In this document: positions 5,153 to 25,969 of the stretch, one piece after another | Position numbering within the stretch: position 1 is the first letter of the stretch | Layout of the letters: every line of letters begins with the position of its first letter | Virus genome (UHGV): UHGV-0062447 | DNA length: 26,556 nucleotides | Origin: a virus | Reading direction: 5' to 3' (one strand) | Notes under the pieces: model-generated | The model's database searches: none | What the model was told of the DNA's origin: nothing | What the model saw: only the letters and a program-made list of their open reading frames with translations | Made by a program: the position numbers and the translations under genes

Positions 5153-5423
5153 GTTTCAGTTCCTCGATCCGGCGTTGTCGTTGTCTCAGCTGTGCGCTGG
5201 TCTGTTCTGCTTCGGCATAGAGCCGCGCCTGCTCCCGGTTATTGGTTTCAGTCAGAATGGACAGGCTGATAAGCTGGCTGTTGCTCTTTGCCAGTGCCTG
5301 GCTTTTGCTCTGCAGCTTGTTTGCCTGCGTGCTGATGGTCTGGCTGGCATCAGCCAGCCGCCACGTCTGCCAGCCCAGCGCCGCCAGTAATAACGCCAGC
5401 ACAACCAGCAGCAACCGGTTCAT
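4995..5423 (-). CDS. lysB: LysB, Rz-like inner-membrane spanin
   Basis: 142 aa with an N-terminal TM segment (LLLVVLALLLAALGW) and a coiled-coil-like remainder; ATG 5421-5423 overlaps lysA stop. Confidence 0.75.
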   Translation of the reverse strand: MNRLLLVVLALLLAALGWQTWRLADASQTISTQANKLQSKSQALAKSNSQLISLSILTETNNREQARLYAEAEQTSAQLRQRQRRIEELKRENEDLRHWADTPLPADIIRLRERPALTGGAAYRQWLSASDAVSAGAGSTTH

Positions 5424-5797
5424 GCTGATACCTGTTGCGCCATCTGATTACGGGTCATCCAGAAGGCAATAACGGTCAGCAGATAAAAGACCAGGGTAAT
5501 AGCCCACCCCGTCCAGGCGAGACTTACAACAATCAGCAATCGCATCACCCAACTGGTAAATACGTTTTCTTTTCGGGTAATTGTCTTCAGCAAAGATGCC
5601 CTTAACTCCTGCCAGAGCGGGCCATTCTTAATTAACGCAGCCAGTGCTACCGGAATTACCGCCCATGTCAGCAAACAGGCTACCCAAACGCCGGACGCTG
5701 ACAGTACCGGAAAAATCCCCTGCGGATACACCATTGCTGCGATTAACAGCGCCATCCATAACATCAGAAATAGTCCGCTGATTAATTTCTTTTTCAT
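5420..5797 (-). CDS. lysA: LysA, small membrane lysis-timing protein
   Basis: From ATG at 5795-5797 (MKKKLISGLFLMLWMALLIAAMV...); several hydrophobic helices; position between K and lysB as in P2. Confidence 0.7.
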   Translation of the reverse strand: MKKKLISGLFLMLWMALLIAAMVYPQGIFPVLSASGVWVACLLTWAVIPVALAALIKNGPLWQELRASLLKTITRKENVFTSWVMRLLIVVSLAWTGWAITLVFYLLTVIAFWMTRNQMAQQVSA

Positions 5798-21050: not shown

Positions 21051-21509
21051 ATGACTAAACAAAGCTCCGAATACTTCCAATTACACTACTGTTATTACCT
21101 TGAACTAATGACAGCAACGTTCCATGGTCGAGCTGATAAATTAATGACAGCAATCCAACTTATAAGCGGAACAGCTGTATTTGCTAATACAGGTCTGGAA
21201 TGGTTGTTCGCTTTTCCTGTTGTTGTAATCGCAACAATCCAACTTGTATGGCAACCAGCTATTATTGCGGAACGAGCAAGCGTACAAAGCCGACAATATG
21301 GTGAGTTGCTTTACGCCGAGGATGAATTGTCTCCACAGTTCATTGCACAAAAATTGAAAGCTTTGCATCACTCTGACTCCACAACATTCGGATCTTTGTT
21401 AAACCCTGCCTACAAAAGAGCTGCTATTGCCTGTGGTCGGGTTGACGATGTAAACCTCAGCTTCCAAGAAAAACTTTTCGCTTGGTTCGCAGGTTGTTTG
21501 CCACGTTAA
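21051..21509 (+). CDS. Hypothetical membrane protein (152 aa, two predicted TM helices), opposite strand to the early operon
   Basis: ATG 21051 with AGGAAT upstream; hydrophobic segments LMTAIQLISGTAVFANTGLEWLFAFPVVVIATIQLVW; lower GC than the surrounding backbone; followed by hairpin CCCCGG-N11-CCGGGG (21545-21567). Confidence 0.65.
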   Translation: MTKQSSEYFQLHYCYYLELMTATFHGRADKLMTAIQLISGTAVFANTGLEWLFAFPVVVIATIQLVWQPAIIAERASVQSRQYGELLYAEDELSPQFIAQKLKALHHSDSTTFGSLLNPAYKRAAIACGRVDDVNLSFQEKLFAWFAGCLPR

Positions 21510-21697: not shown

Positions 21698-22207
21698 TCA
21701 CAGCAAACCGAATGAAGCACCGAGGCCAGTCACGGTATCAACTGCACTCGCCATCGCAGGATTAGCCTGTAAACGGGCCTGCAATGAAACAGCAGCCAGC
21801 GCCATCAGTCGTGTTACAGAGTTAATGCTGCTGATAGCATCACGACGACCTGCACTGGTTTTTACATCGCCAGATACCGCACCTGCAGCAACACGTCCGA
21901 TCTCTGCGGTTGCACTCATGACGTAATGTGGCAGTTTCTCTTTTGCTACCTCATTAATCGGTACACATGGCAGACAGTGAATCTGAGCCAGAAAGCCATC
22001 TACCAGCGTCGAATCTTCAGTCAGATCGGTAAGCAGCCAAATTTCTGGTGCGGTTAATAAATGAGGTTGAGCAGGGTTCAACTTGTTTCGCAGAATCTGC
22101 ACATTCATTCCTGCACGTCCTGCCAGCTGCACCAGGTTGTGGCGCAGTGCGAATGCACGACAGGCTTCATCAAAATGTGGATGTTTGGAAACTTGGTAAT
22201 CAAACAT
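21698..22207 (-). CDS. cII: CII-like lysogeny-establishment regulator (186 CII family)
   Basis: From ATG 22205-22207: [24 protein letters not shown]...[15 protein letters not shown]...[26 protein letters not shown]... closely parallels 186 CII (169 aa) as recalled. Confidence 0.85.
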
Positions 22208-22271: not shown

Positions 22272-22475
22272 TTAAGCAGACAAAGCATCAACAGTCAGAG
22301 CAGCCAGGTTAATCATTACCTTTTCACGTTTTTTGTCTTTACGAAGACGATGACGAGGTAGTCGGCCATCAGCCAACATGTCGTTAATCGTATCAATAGA
22401 AAGGCCAGTCAGTTCGCTATAACGTTCGATTGTGACATGTGGTGTATTCAGAGTAATTGAAATGTTAGGTGTCAT
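22272..22475 (-). CDS. apl: Apl/Cox-like excisionase and lytic-promoter repressor
   Basis: 67-aa HTH protein, first gene of the lytic operon, divergent from cI; ATG 22473-22475. Confidence 0.7.
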
Positions 22476-22620: not shown

Positions 22621-23190
22621 GTGGATTTCAATAGCGGCGGTAAGAAAGCCATAGAACGTTTGGTTGAAGCATACGGGTTCGGTACCCGTCAGGCTCTCTG
22701 TGATCATTTAGGTGTTTCTAAGAGCACCATGGCAACGCGTTATATGCGTGATATTTTTCCGGCAGATTGGGTAATCCAGTGCGCCCTTGAAACGGGTACC
22801 TCGCTTAATTGGCTAACAACAGGGCATGGTTCAAAGCAAGCATCAGCAAATACAAATACTATAGAAGTAGTAAAATATTTATTGTCTGATGGAGCATTGC
22901 AGGAAGACGGTTTTTATATTTTTGATAAGGGATTTCTACCCTCTACGTTTAAAAAACCTTTTGTCATCACAGATAACAATTCTGAATTTATTTGTGATAA
23001 AGAATTTGATGATATACGTGATGGTAAATGGGTAATAAGTATTGATGGCGAAATAACAATCCGCGACATCACTCGTTTACCCGGTGGAAGAATTTTCGTT
23101 GAAGGTGGAAACAGAGCCTTCGAGTGCAAGATAGAAGATGTTGAAATAATTGGAAAAATTATAAGCTTAACAGTTAAGTATGTTAGATAA
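22621..23190 (+). CDS. cI: CI immunity repressor (186 CI family)
   Basis: Preferred GTG start at 22621 preceded by GGAGG (ORF-track start 22534 is also GTG). N-terminal HTH region (...AIERLVEAYGFGTRQALCDHLGVSKSTMATRYMR...ALETGTSLNWLTTGHG) and C-terminal pattern (WVISIDGEITIRDITRLPGG...GGNRAFECKIEDVEIIG) parallel 186 CI; C-terminal half is AT-rich. Confidence 0.8.
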   Translation: MDFNSGGKKAIERLVEAYGFGTRQALCDHLGVSKSTMATRYMRDIFPADWVIQCALETGTSLNWLTTGHGSKQASANTNTIEVVKYLLSDGALQEDGFYIFDKGFLPSTFKKPFVITDNNSEFICDKEFDDIRDGKWVISIDGEITIRDITRLPGGRIFVEGGNRAFECKIEDVEIIGKIISLTVKYVR

Positions 23191-23205
23191 TACCTGGAGG
23201 AAACT

Positions 23206-23388
23206 ATGCTTGGTAAGTTTTTTTTTGTGGTTTTATCATGCTCTTTGTTATTAAACCCACTAACTACCTATGCTAAAAATTATCCTTGTTCTGGGAAAAA
23301 GGGAGGTGTCTCTCACTGTACCTCTGATGGAAAATTTGTTTGCAATGATGGAACCATCAGTAAATCCAAAAAAACATGCATCAAATAA
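23206..23388 (+). CDS. Small predicted secreted Cys-rich protein (60 aa: signal peptide plus ~37-aa mature peptide with 4 Cys)
   Basis: ATG 23206 with GGAGG 5 nt upstream; [60 protein letters not shown]; AT-rich; starts 15 bp after the cI stop. Confidence 0.65.
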
Positions 23389-23401
23389 TAAGGAAATATG
23401 A

Positions 23402-24733
23402 ATGAGCACAGATATAACTTTCGATATACGTGATGAATATAAAAGAAAAGCCATTGCAGAAAAAATAATAAGTTTGCTAGAGTCTAATATTCCTGTTTCA
23501 CCTATGGTCATAGATGGGGACTGGGGGACTGGAAAAACAGAGTTTTCAAAAAAGTTAGCATCCTTAATTGAAATAAACTCGACCAATCATAAAGTAGTTT
23601 ATATAGATGCTTTTACTGAAGATCACAACGATGCTCCCATACTTACAATAATGGCCGCAATTGCAGCTCTATATAATAGCGATGAAAAAAAGGAATTAAT
23701 ATCTAAGGCATTGCCAGCCCTCAGATTCGGACTTAAGACTGTACTCAAAGCTGGTGCTGGTTGGGTATTAAAACAAAATGCGGATGAAATTAATGAGGAA
23801 TTTGAAGAGGTTATCAAAGACGCTGCAAATTCAGCTATCGATGGAACCATCGAGGCTCTGTTAGAAGATCATATCGAGGCACAAAAGAACGTTCTTGCTC
23901 TAAAAGAAGTACTAACCAAATTAGCTGGAGAAAGTAAACTAACAATAATTATAGATGAGTTAGACAGATGTAAGCCTAGTTTTGCCATTTCTATTATTGA
24001 AAATATAAAACATGTTTTTGATATAAAAAACATTAACTTTTTATTAATTGCAAACACAACTCAACTAAAAGCATCCATAAATCATATCTATGGCTCTTCT
24101 GTAGACTCCAACCGTTATCTTGACAAATTTATAAAATTTACATACAGCCTTCCTGTTACCTTTAAGGAAGATAATTATAATGACACTTTAACTTCCAAAA
24201 ATCATTGGATGATGCTATGTGAGCAATCTGAAAGGCTGACCGCTGCAGTAGAAGCCAGCGAAGATATTTTCTTACAGTTCATTGAAAGTAGAAAATTATC
24301 ATTACGTGAGGTTGAAACACTTGCTAGATATGTTGAAATATACCAACTACTATCAGGCGACAAAATTAGCAACAAATATATTTATGGATATTGTTATTAC
24401 AGGACTCTAGCGATAATAATCTACACTTTTAACCGAGAGTTAGCTCTCAACTTTCTTGAAGATAAAGTTGATGCTCAATCAATCATGAAATTGTTTGGTT
24501 TGTCTAAATTTTCATATCAAACAAGTGAATATAATGTAGATAATTATGAATATGCTATATTTGGAATAGTTTACAAATACTTATCTGAAAACTCATCTCT
24601 TTTACCTACTGAGGAAAATATAAAAAGACAATGGGCAGAAATGAGTGAATACCATTTTTTAAAAGGTAGTGGCGGTATTGGTGAACCAACAAATATTGTG
24701 AAAGATGCTTTAAAAGTTTTTTTACTTCAGTGA
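23402..24733 (+). CDS. KAP-family P-loop NTPase (443 aa)
   Basis: Walker A in the KAP-typical form GDWGTGKT and Walker B IIIDELDRC (DxLDRC); AT-rich; ATG 23402 preceded by AGGAA. Confidence 0.75.
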   Translation: MSTDITFDIRDEYKRKAIAEKIISLLESNIPVSPMVIDGDWGTGKTEFSKKLASLIEINSTNHKVVYIDAFTEDHNDAPILTIMAAIAALYNSDEKKELISKALPALRFGLKTVLKAGAGWVLKQNADEINEEFEEVIKDAANSAIDGTIEALLEDHIEAQKNVLALKEVLTKLAGESKLTIIIDELDRCKPSFAISIIENIKHVFDIKNINFLLIANTTQLKASINHIYGSSVDSNRYLDKFIKFTYSLPVTFKEDNYNDTLTSKNHWMMLCEQSERLTAAVEASEDIFLQFIESRKLSLREVETLARYVEIYQLLSGDKISNKYIYGYCYYRTLAIIIYTFNRELALNFLEDKVDAQSIMKLFGLSKFSYQTSEYNVDNYEYAIFGIVYKYLSENSSLLPTEENIKRQWAEMSEYHFLKGSGGIGEPTNIVKDALKVFLLQ

Positions 24734-24759
24734 TATGTATGGCTATACAAATTCATACA

Positions 24760-24788
24760 TTGACACTGGTTATATATACAGTAAAAAT
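24760..24788 (+). promoter_or_regulatory. Putative sigma70 promoter upstream of int (-35 TTGACA) overlapped by a LexA-box-like dyad CTGGTTATATATACAG
   Basis: Read directly: TTGACA-CTGGTTATATATACAG-TAAAAAT; the dyad differs from CTGT-N8-ACAG at one position. Confidence 0.35.
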
Positions 24789-24812: not shown

Positions 24813-25865
24813 ATGGCTGTACGAAAACTCACCACAGGAAAATGGCTTTGCGAATGTTACCCCGCCGGACGTAGTGGGCGTCGTGTGCGTAAACAATTCG
24901 CCACCAAAGGCGAAGCACTGGCTTTTGAGCGTCACACGATGGAAGAAACCGAAGCAAAGCCCTGGCTGGGTGAATCAGTGGATCGTCGAACACTGAAAGA
25001 CGTGGTTGAGCTATGGTTCAAACTACATGGTAAATCTCTGACTGCTGGGCAGCATGTCTATGACAAATTGCTGCTGATGGTTGACGCTCTGGGCAATCCC
25101 CTTGCAACTGATCTAACCTCTAAAATGTTTGCCCACTATCGAGATAAACGCCTGACAGGTGAGATCTACTTCAGCGAGAAATGGAAGAAAGGAGCAAGCC
25201 CGGTCACCATTAACCTGGAGCAAAGCTATCTAAGTAGTGTTTTTAGCGAACTATCCCGCCTGGGCGAATGGTCGTATCCGAACCCACTGGAGAACATGCG
25301 AAAATTCACCATCGCAGAAAAAGAGATGGCATGGCTTACCCATGAGCAGATTGTTGAATTACTGGCTGATTGCAAACGTCAGGAGCCAATTCTGGCACTG
25401 GTAGTTAAGATATGCTTAAGCACAGGCGCACGCTGGCGAGAAGCCGTAAATCTTACCCGCTCACAGGTGACCAAATACCGAATTACCTTTGTAAGAACGA
25501 AGGGGAAGAAAAACAGAAGCATCCCTATCAGTAAAGAGCTTTACGAAGAGATCATGGCGCTTGATGGATTCAATTTCTTCACAGACTGCTATTTTCAATT
25601 TTTATCCGTGATGGAAAAAACGTCTATCGTGCTCCCTCGCGGTCAACTCACACACGTTCTGCGCCATACGTTTGCGGCGCACTTCATGATGTCGGGTGGA
25701 AACATTCTGGCCTTACAAAAAATTCTCGGACACCACGATATAAAAATGACTATGCGTTACGCACATCTGGCACCGGATCATCTGGAAACGGCGCTCCGTT
25801 TCAATCCTCTGGCAACGCTGCCAAGTGGCGACAAAGTGGCGGCAGCGGTTGGCATTACCCCGTAA
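24813..25865 (+). CDS. int: Tyrosine integrase (P2/186 Int family)
   Basis: From ATG 24813: MAVRKLTTGKWLCECYPAGRSGRRVRKQFATKGEALAFE... parallels the P2 Int N-terminus (MAIKKLDDGRYEVDIRPTGRNGKRIRRKFDKKSEAVAFE) and contains the catalytic-region motifs STGARW, HVLRHTFA and MRYAH. Confidence 0.9.
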   Translation: MAVRKLTTGKWLCECYPAGRSGRRVRKQFATKGEALAFERHTMEETEAKPWLGESVDRRTLKDVVELWFKLHGKSLTAGQHVYDKLLLMVDALGNPLATDLTSKMFAHYRDKRLTGEIYFSEKWKKGASPVTINLEQSYLSSVFSELSRLGEWSYPNPLENMRKFTIAEKEMAWLTHEQIVELLADCKRQEPILALVVKICLSTGARWREAVNLTRSQVTKYRITFVRTKGKKNRSIPISKELYEEIMALDGFNFFTDCYFQFLSVMEKTSIVLPRGQLTHVLRHTFAAHFMMSGGNILALQKILGHHDIKMTMRYAHLAPDHLETALRFNPLATLPSGDKVAAAVGITP

Positions 25866-25920: not shown

Positions 25921-25969
25921 CATTAACCCGTTTACATAAATGGGTTTTTTGTTGCCTGAAATTTATCTA

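Follow-up and report, generated by a model that had tools for sequence, protein, structure and literature searches.

The virus genome UHGV-0062447 was analysed as one stretch of 26,556 nt, referred to here as the window. Its end is the lysogeny region of a P2/186-like (Peduoviridae-type) prophage, which lies beside rcdA (ybjK) in E. coli; identical DNA is present in 34 of the 5,426 complete E. coli genomes over which all E. coli counts given below were taken. The subject of this work is a gene of 60 codons at positions 23206-23388, here called the mini-gene, which is located between the cI repressor gene and a gene coding for a KAP-family NTPase. A preliminary description of this DNA had reported an open reading frame (ORF) of 60 aa with a GGAGG ribosome binding site, a Sec-type leader and a 37-aa mature part with the cysteine pattern C-x9-C-x7-C-x11-C, and had placed it in the lysogenic operon between cI and the KAP gene. 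Each of these features is found in the sequence, and the gene order is confirmed. The features of the mini-gene are as follows.

23206-23388, + strand: YdcA-family mini-protein gene, 60 aa plus stop codon (NF007463, PHROG 6000, PF27300 cluster, PGAP name, and the ratio of non-synonymous to synonymous change, pN/pS)
23196-23200, + strand: Shine-Dalgarno sequence GGAGG (visible in the DNA itself), separated from the mini-gene's ATG by 5 nt
23206-23274, + strand: predicted Sec-type signal peptide, residues 1-23 (hydropathy, conserved Ala at -1, predicted signal peptidase I cleavage after T-Y-A)
23275-23385, + strand: mature cationic domain of 37 aa with four invariant Cys residues (alignments A1, A4 and A5; predicted local distance difference test, pLDDT; Dis2 relative)

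The cI gene ends with the stop codon TAA at 23188-23190, the mini-gene extends from its ATG at 23206 to its stop codon at 23386-23388, and the KAP NTPase gene starts on the same strand at 23402, leaving a gap of 13 nt. Comparison of a 32-codon core of the mini-gene with other E. coli prophage alleles revealed 5-11 synonymous changes versus one non-synonymous change, with pN/pS values of 0.025-0.055. For the more diverged alleles L088, L092 and L093, pS is nearly saturated at 0.85-1.0, and pN is just 0.03-0.06. As pN stays low where pS is nearly saturated, the ORF is not a chance frame, and this reading was rejected; the mini-gene is a real gene under strong purifying selection. A frame that is not maintained in related loci would, according to the preliminary description, have spoken against the ORF; with such low pN/pS values, the frame is clearly maintained.

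The mini-protein encoded by this gene is matched by the NCBIfam model NF007463 with 108.8 bits (cutoff 93) over residues 6-60 and by PHROG 6000 with an E value of 2e-32, and it shares a 90% cluster with P0002, a representative that carries the Pfam entry PF27300 (YdcA). The YdcA equivalog model NF007462 scores 67.6 bits, which is below its cutoff of 118. Among the 34 identical E. coli loci, the PGAP label of the ORF varies between 'hypothetical protein' and 'YdcA family protein'. A Pfam-A scan of the mini-protein gave no match in the release used, which predates PF27300, and a PADLOC scan gave no match either, so that it is no listed defence gene; a match to the NCBIfam lpg1681 family (E 0.1) was dismissed as noise. 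We are highly confident that the mini-protein is a phage-borne member of the named YdcA family and separate from the KAP NTPase. It is no orphan: it is a new member of a known, uncharacterised family and not a new system. The P0002 cluster bears the UniRef name 'Conjugal transfer protein'; no transfer genes were seen beside the mini-gene in the window, and this label looks like an annotation carry-over.

A profile search of 1.84 billion cluster representatives matched 437 clusters, 268 of them at E <=1e-10, and the matches include proteins with two or three YdcA domains in tandem (P0199-P0203). A species-level genome scan identified 286 relatives in Alpha-, Beta- and Gammaproteobacteria, and the chromosomal ydcA gene of Escherichia and Shigella, which adjoins a cytochrome b561 gene, was recovered among the homologues. 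The prophage-type mini-gene itself is present in 628 of the complete E. coli genomes (coverage of at least 80%). Using tblastn against a phage collection, homologues were also found in Moraxella Mcat phages, Acinetobacter Vieuvirus-type phages and Pseudomonas phage Y12, and matches in a plasmid collection come chiefly from small Acinetobacter plasmids and Rhizobium replicons. Members of the family show a strong enrichment in lysogeny modules, in other prophages and on small plasmids. When the immediate neighbours were scanned with Pfam, cI was detected in 5 and integrase in 6 of 66 loci, along with cytochrome b561, DUF2946 and Mu Gam/GemA.

Other arrangements of the family were observed in these searches. 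A DUF2946 gene follows the ydcA-like gene on the same strand in 6 of the 66 loci (L021-L029, Atlantibacter/Citrobacter, at about 5230-5700), and in L021 the int gene of a P2-like prophage ends about 760 nt upstream of this pair. A gene coding for a tRNA_anti-like OB-fold protein with a signal peptide (PF12869) comes after the ydcA-like gene in the Haemophilus phage HP2 (L005 3112-3876, E 2.8e-13) and in Moraxella caviae (L049 5224-5670, E 3.4e-19); the two may form a recurrent two-gene exported module, and the window is without such a gene. In a metagenome-assembled genome of Crenothrix polyspora, a protein of 307 aa (L052 1732-2655) consists of a leader, a YdcA domain and an Endonuclease_NS domain (E 7e-35), and the YdcA domain can therefore be the N-terminal module of an exported nuclease.

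The leader of the mini-protein comprises a lysine at position 4, a 12-residue hydrophobic core and the residues T-Y-A at positions -3 to -1, and its core has a mean Kyte-Doolittle hydropathy of 2.7 in an 11-residue window. Ala23 is invariant in 19 homologues and conserved in at least 90% of 45. Among 72 diverse family representatives, 70 possess the hydrophobic core, 69 an N-terminal lysine or arginine and 71 a small-x-small site, whereas the leader sequence itself is variable and the mature motif nearly invariant. A leader whose sequence drifts while its architecture is kept is what one would expect if a signal peptide is cleaved off a folded domain that is itself under constraint, and we infer that the mini-protein is exported and that its Sec leader is cleaved after Ala23. 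For the E. coli YdcA protein, a signal sequence has been described and a periplasmic location predicted (PMC11340327). In an AlphaFold2 model of the mini-protein, residues 4-16 form a lone helix of low confidence, and pLDDT values of about 90 are reached across residues 31-50. The mature part amounts to 3.9 kDa, with a net charge of about +5.8 to +6 and a pI of 9.5. Its Cys residues are located at positions 28, 38, 46 and 58, and a fifth, Cys12, lies within the leader. The four Cys residues of the mature part are invariant in 75 of 75 family representatives, and the residues of the motif PCSG.KGG..C / GKF.C.DG..S.SK..C are at least 90% conserved in the family. The mature part is probably a periplasmic, disulfide-bonded domain.

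A structural relative was found in the Protein Data Bank (PDB), where the only significant match of the family profiles was chain 7muc_AN, with E values of 1.1e-4 and 7.3e-5 and a second, weak repeat match. This chain is Dis2 (Lpg0823), a protein of the outer-membrane cap that belongs to the Dot/Icm type IVB secretion system in Legionella pneumophila (PDB 7MUC, 7MUD; PMC8486379). It was also the top match in Foldseek (probability 0.98, 40% identity, root-mean-square deviation of 1.8 A, 35 columns). In single-sequence phmmer searches against the PDB with tandem relatives, P0202 matched Dis2 weakly (E 0.037) and P0201 gave no match; values of about 1e-4 were reached by the family profiles only. 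The YdcA and Dis2 sequence types are connected by tandem YdcA proteins that contain KMGGI and CNNG motifs. Homology between the YdcA domain and Dis2 at the level of the domain is probable, as judged from sequence profiles and model comparison, and Dis2 looks like a YdcA domain that has been duplicated in tandem. Dis2 has two similar lobes with five disulfides and is located near the outer membrane (PMC8486379); it touches DotK, DotC and DotD and is dispensable for assembly (PMC12716638). The papers describing Dis2 regard it as species-specific and found no structural relatives. Based on the homology to Dis2, the four Cys residues of the mini-protein would be disulfide-bonded and the domain would have its place at the periplasmic face of the outer membrane.

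The position of the mini-gene is conserved along with its sequence. A cI gene followed by a ydcA-like gene on the same strand, with int as the last gene, is found in E. coli, in Yersinia (with 48-nt gaps), in Buttiauxella and in Spirabiliibacterium. Phage HP2 possesses an unannotated YdcA-family ORF of 60 codons, which overlaps the cI stop codon in the sequence ATGA and whose product consists of the N-terminal part MKKLISTVLIASSFFMVANMADA and a 37-residue mature part.

L005 2920-3102, + strand (about 2486-2668 of NC_003315.1, complement): ydcA-like ORF of HP2, directly after cI

On the transcript attributed to pL in the record, the HP2 ORF comes before orf1(S) and int, and the same unannotated ORF is present in phage S2. 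Among the best 80 IMG/VR contigs (near-identical E. coli-type loci only), the order cI-ydcA-int is seen in 73 and a KAP gene in 3. The mini-gene is a near-constant companion of its cI allele group in P2/186-like prophages beside rcdA, and the linkage of ydcA-like genes to cI in P2-like phages is tight and ancient.

The preliminary description had further suggested that the peptide is functionally paired with the NTPase encoded downstream, and had proposed to look for co-occurrence of the two in other genomes. The following features bear on this question.

23402-24733, + strand: KAP-family P-loop NTPase, predicted to be cytoplasmic, candidate single-gene anti-phage defence (KAP_NTPase E 1.4e-53; PDC-S20)
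23375-24724, + strand: segment missing from KAP-less sister prophages, made up of the last four codons of the mini-gene and almost the entire KAP gene; the KAP-less form has 123 nt in its place

In a blastn comparison of the window with the KAP-less loci L004 and L002, homology stops at 23374 and resumes at 24725. The KAP-less order cI-ydcA-like-int is found in 589 complete E. coli genomes, among them E. coli B (as in B/BL21, where it is a prophage remnant), as counted with a 500-nt probe over the mini-gene, a short spacer and the start of int that had to be contiguous in the genome. NC101 is an example of a strain with the KAP form. The KAP allele of the window is present in 34 E. coli genomes, all at least 99.5% identical, and a second form of cI-ydcA-like-KAP-int, whose DNA is 78% and whose KAP protein is 71% identical to the window, in 9, giving a total of 43 genomes with both genes. 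In 15 further E. coli genomes, a third KAP allele (55% identical) lies directly after cI, without a ydcA-like gene, and is followed by int. The KAP homologues of Enterobacter ludwigii and Buttiauxella (67-68% identity) follow a ydcA-like gene. A Yersinia homologue (51% identity) in the same cI-int slot is preceded by an ORF for a 160-aa cytoplasmic protein and not by a ydcA-like gene, and homologues without a ydcA-like gene are located in a lambdoid prophage of Citrobacter, close to its Q antiterminator gene, and in a different locus in Photobacterium. Conversely, in 70 loci from other species, 766 ORFs lie within 5 kb of a ydcA-like gene and none of them matches KAP, and KAP_NTPase is absent from the Pfam scans of immediate ydcA-like neighbours in 66 loci. 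Each of the two genes is found without the other, and the proposed pairing is therefore unsupported. The persistence of the pair down to about 70% KAP identity is best explained by the linkage of the ydcA-like gene to its cI lineage and not by function. The KAP protein corresponds to the PADLOC single-gene candidate PDC-S20 (569 bits), with weaker matches to PifA and QatA; nothing on PDC-S20 was found in the literature. It contains no membrane segment, its maximum hydropathy being 0.93 in a 19-residue window, and as it has no hydrophobic segment, an exported peptide would have no obvious route to it. Of the properties expected of a two-gene system with KAP, neither consistent co-occurrence nor a shared compartment or interaction surface was found. 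Within the cI-int hotspot, the KAP NTPase gene is a cargo of its own that can be swapped.

The remaining genes and sites of the lysogeny region are listed below.

21698-22207, - strand: cII-like (CP76) regulator of the divergent lytic/early operon (Phage_CP76 E 1.9e-41; PGAP of the identical locus L001)
22272-22475, - strand: Apl/Cox-like small HTH gene, first gene of the lytic operon (weak HTH_17 and Phage_Cox matches; position as in 186, HP2 and K139)
22621-23190, + strand: cI repressor (186/HP1 type), first lysogenic gene (Phage_CI_repr E 3.3e-31, Phage_CI_C E 1.6e-28; PGAP start GTG at 22621)
24813-25865, + strand: tyrosine integrase, last gene of the lysogenic operon (Pfam Int_N and Phage_integrase; PGAP coordinates)
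25925-25946, + strand: terminator-like 9-bp hairpin and T run after int

No terminator-like site was found between cI, the mini-gene and the KAP gene; downstream of cI, such sites are limited to the one at 25925-25946 and a weak match of 5 bp within KAP (24435-24448). From the 3' half of cI up to where the KAP gene ends, the G+C content is about 33%, as compared with about 48% on both sides; along the window, it amounts to 27-38% at about 22800-24750 versus 45-52% in int and the early genes. The block formed by the cI C-terminal domain, the ydcA-like gene and the KAP gene looks compositionally foreign. The best sigma-70-like match (TTGACA, 17 nt, AAAAAT, 10/12) is located at 24760-24788 on the + strand, in the interval that separates the stop codon of KAP from the start codon of int, in sequence that is common to KAP-less prophages, and may be a separate int promoter. 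Opposite the early operon, between two Fil-family genes, lies an ORF for a 152-aa hypothetical protein with hydrophobic stretches (21051-21509, + strand; WP_000166365.1), which is matched by neither Pfam nor PADLOC and could represent further cargo. No RNA family was found anywhere in the window with Rfam. With regard to other cargo of the cI-int interval, the Yersinia 160-aa ORF between cI and KAP (L095 2994-3476) and orf2 of Vibrio phage K139 (L101 2194-3099, annotated as BRCT domain-containing) match the C-terminal part of PDC-S48 weakly, with E values of 2e-4 and 3e-8, respectively, which suggests a shared module.

In phages of the 186 type, the genes of the cI operon are expressed from pL in the lysogen. 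The reading that we favour, with a probability of roughly 40%, is that the mini-protein acts as a periplasmic envelope factor that is made in the lysogen and is independent of KAP. The mini-gene would be co-transcribed with cI and int from the lysogenic promoter, as suggested by the tight spacing of the genes on one strand, by the lack of a terminator between them and by the annotated pL operons of HP2 and K139. The mini-protein would then be exported by the Sec pathway and its leader cleaved after Ala23, in keeping with the conserved leader architecture, and the four invariant Cys residues would form two disulfides in the periplasm, similar to those that staple the lobes of Dis2. In the next step, the resulting cationic knot of 3.9 kDa might bind to a conserved partner in the envelope, beneath the outer membrane, for which the placement of Dis2 on the lipoproteins DotC and DotD and on the OmpA-like DotK could serve as a model. 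The KAP NTPase would act separately, in the cytoplasm. According to the K139 GenBank annotation and secondary citations, on which the statements about Glo made here rest, the PL operon of Vibrio phage K139 (Peduoviridae) has the order cI-orf2-glo-int, where Glo bears the annotation 'periplasmic protein; involved in phage exclusion' (PMC3952083, PMC4870250). As with Glo in K139, the outcome could be lysogenic conversion, with an altered envelope that impedes superinfecting phages at an early step after adsorption. Surface or superinfection exclusion, which the preliminary description had listed as an alternative, is viable as a hypothesis with Glo as the precedent in this slot; such a block of entry is, as the specific outcome, possible but doubtful. 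One might speculate further that YdcA-domain mini-proteins are a widespread, unrecognised class of periplasmic conversion or exclusion factors on mobile elements, an extension that we regard as unlikely. Within it, and at the same low level of belief, the proteins would dock on lipoprotein or OmpA-like partners, with chromosomal YdcA as a domesticated copy. Their genes are kept immediately behind cI in P2-like phages from Escherichia and Yersinia to Haemophilus, and further copies are found in phages that are Mu-like or come from Moraxella and Acinetobacter, and on small plasmids.

Several observations weigh against the favoured envelope-factor reading and its exclusion outcome, and some of them argue for the possibility that the mini-gene is a general envelope fitness or stress-tolerance gene, which does what chromosomal YdcA does and has no effect on phage infection. 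Deletion of ydcA in E. coli W leads to sensitivity to 300 mM 3-hydroxypropionate, and the gene has been reported to be acid-induced under YdcI (PMC7642389). In addition, many contexts of the family are not phage-related, for example near cytochrome b561 or DUF2946, and in Escherichia and Shigella a chromosomal copy lies beside cybB. The match of the mature domain to E. coli YdcA, with about 75% identity, fits such a stress role as well. No Escherichia phage record, and thus neither 186 nor P2, was among the tblastn matches in the phage collection; as sequenced isolates such as these were not matched, the mini-gene is not essential for the P2/186-like phage type. Loss of Dis2 has subtle effects only (PMC12716638). 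Glo was rejected as a homologue of the mini-protein (hhalign probability 8%), and since the two are not homologous, the exclusion outcome draws on an analogy of position and compartment only. On the other hand, the stress phenotype is a single one, seen in one strain and with no known mechanism, the family is concentrated on mobile elements as described above, and the same slot carries defence and exclusion genes in related phages (K139; PMC9122126). We consider a general envelope or stress-fitness role, argued by analogy with the phenotype of the chromosomal paralogue, to be a tentative alternative of about equal weight to the exclusion role.

The other explanations are considerably less probable. 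That the mini-protein is a partner, sensor or antagonist of KAP within one two-gene system would fit the adjacency of the genes, 13 nt apart on the same strand, and the fact that ydcA-like genes still precede KAP alleles of 67-71% identity in E. coli, Enterobacter ludwigii and Buttiauxella. However, this co-occurrence is explained by the linkage to the cI lineage, with 589 genomes lacking KAP, and KAP homologues of 46-56% identity are found without a ydcA-like gene, in the same slot and elsewhere. With no KAP neighbour in the 70 loci from other species, a PADLOC model that treats this KAP as a single-gene candidate and no membrane or periplasmic segment in KAP that an exported peptide could reach, the partnership is largely refuted by the distribution of the genes, at odds with the preliminary description, and is improbable. 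A bacteriocin-like antimicrobial or immunity peptide, which had also been suggested there, would likewise be small, cationic (+6), stabilised by Cys residues and made with a leader, but a Sec leader delivers its cargo to the periplasm only, and the operon, which consists of cI, the mini-gene, KAP and int, holds no exporter, maturation or immunity gene. As the domain is moreover encoded by a single-copy chromosomal gene in Escherichia and Shigella, forms part of the structural component Dis2 in Legionella and gives no toxin or bacteriocin match in PADLOC or Pfam, we judge a bacteriocin or immunity function to be very unlikely. The sequence V-L-S-C at Cys12 is loosely lipobox-like, and a Yersinia homologue is labelled 'Lipoprotein' in UniRef, which would agree with an outer-membrane lipoprotein processed at this residue. 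A lipoprotein should have a conserved lipobox with its Cys at about position 15-35 after an uncharged stretch, whereas this Cys is at position 12, only 7 residues past K4, so that K4 falls inside the stretch that must be uncharged. A leader Cys is present in only 24 of 75 representatives, mostly after I, V or F, and the common feature is instead the conserved small-x-Ala site at positions 21-23; processing as a lipoprotein is hence the most improbable of these explanations.

As first proposed, the combination of a secreted peptide with a cytoplasmic defence NTPase would have been a new system architecture, and this claim falls because the evidence shows two independent genes in a known cargo slot. 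The value that remains is modest and lies in the tight linkage to cI in P2-like phages, in the HP2 gene that was missed in the reference annotation and in the probable kinship to Dis2, a protein called species-specific by those who described it. A phage copy of the gene for an extremely conserved, uncharacterised mini-protein that is predicted to be periplasmic is found in about 11% of complete E. coli genomes, and from its operon position the mini-gene should be expressed together with the repressor in the lysogen. For the uncharacterised ydcA gene, a testable hypothesis is gained, namely that its product is an adaptor near the outer membrane with a possible role in phage exclusion, and the Dis2 field gains simpler, single-domain relatives for study.

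Among known proteins, E. coli YdcA (b1419; NF007462/NF007463, PF27300, PHROG 6000), which has been described as a 57-aa protein of unknown function (PMC11340327), belongs to the same family as the mini-protein. Both have a leader of about 20-23 aa, a mature part of about 37 aa and the same four Cys residues and motif, and their overall identity is 51%. They differ in that the mini-gene is phage-borne and part of a lysogenic operon, whereas ydcA is located on the chromosome beside cybB and rydC, and in that the mini-protein fits the sibling model NF007463 rather than NF007462. Dis2 and the mini-protein share the pattern CS.K.GGI..C..S.G..VCN[DN]G..S, and both would be exported and disulfide-stabilised, in the case of the mini-protein by inference. 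Dis2, however, has two lobes with five disulfides and is part of a secretion machine, while the mini-protein has one lobe and no type IV secretion genes nearby. A role of the mini-protein as a Dis2-like type IVB component is not supported, as it is a single domain encoded in a lysogeny operon without secretion-system genes, and the homology applies to the domain only. Glo of K139, as far as its annotation and the secondary citations go, resembles the mini-protein in being a small, soluble periplasmic protein with a signal peptide whose gene has its place on the lysogenic transcript of a P2-related phage, between cI and int, and its neighbour orf2 is a cytoplasmic cargo gene, as is the KAP gene beside the mini-gene. 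With 137 aa and no sequence relationship to the mini-protein, Glo is a functional and positional analogue only. The cI-int interval of K139-like P2-related phages has been reported as a defence hotspot (Rousset et al., PMC9122126); in a survey from 2026, the integrase-primase region is named among the defence hotspots of P2 as a minor one (PMC13586616). In accordance with these cargo hotspots, the KAP gene of the window (PDC-S20) is an indel in exactly the cI-int interval and variable between sister prophages; the mini-gene, unlike such cargo, is a conserved element of the slot in its cI lineage.

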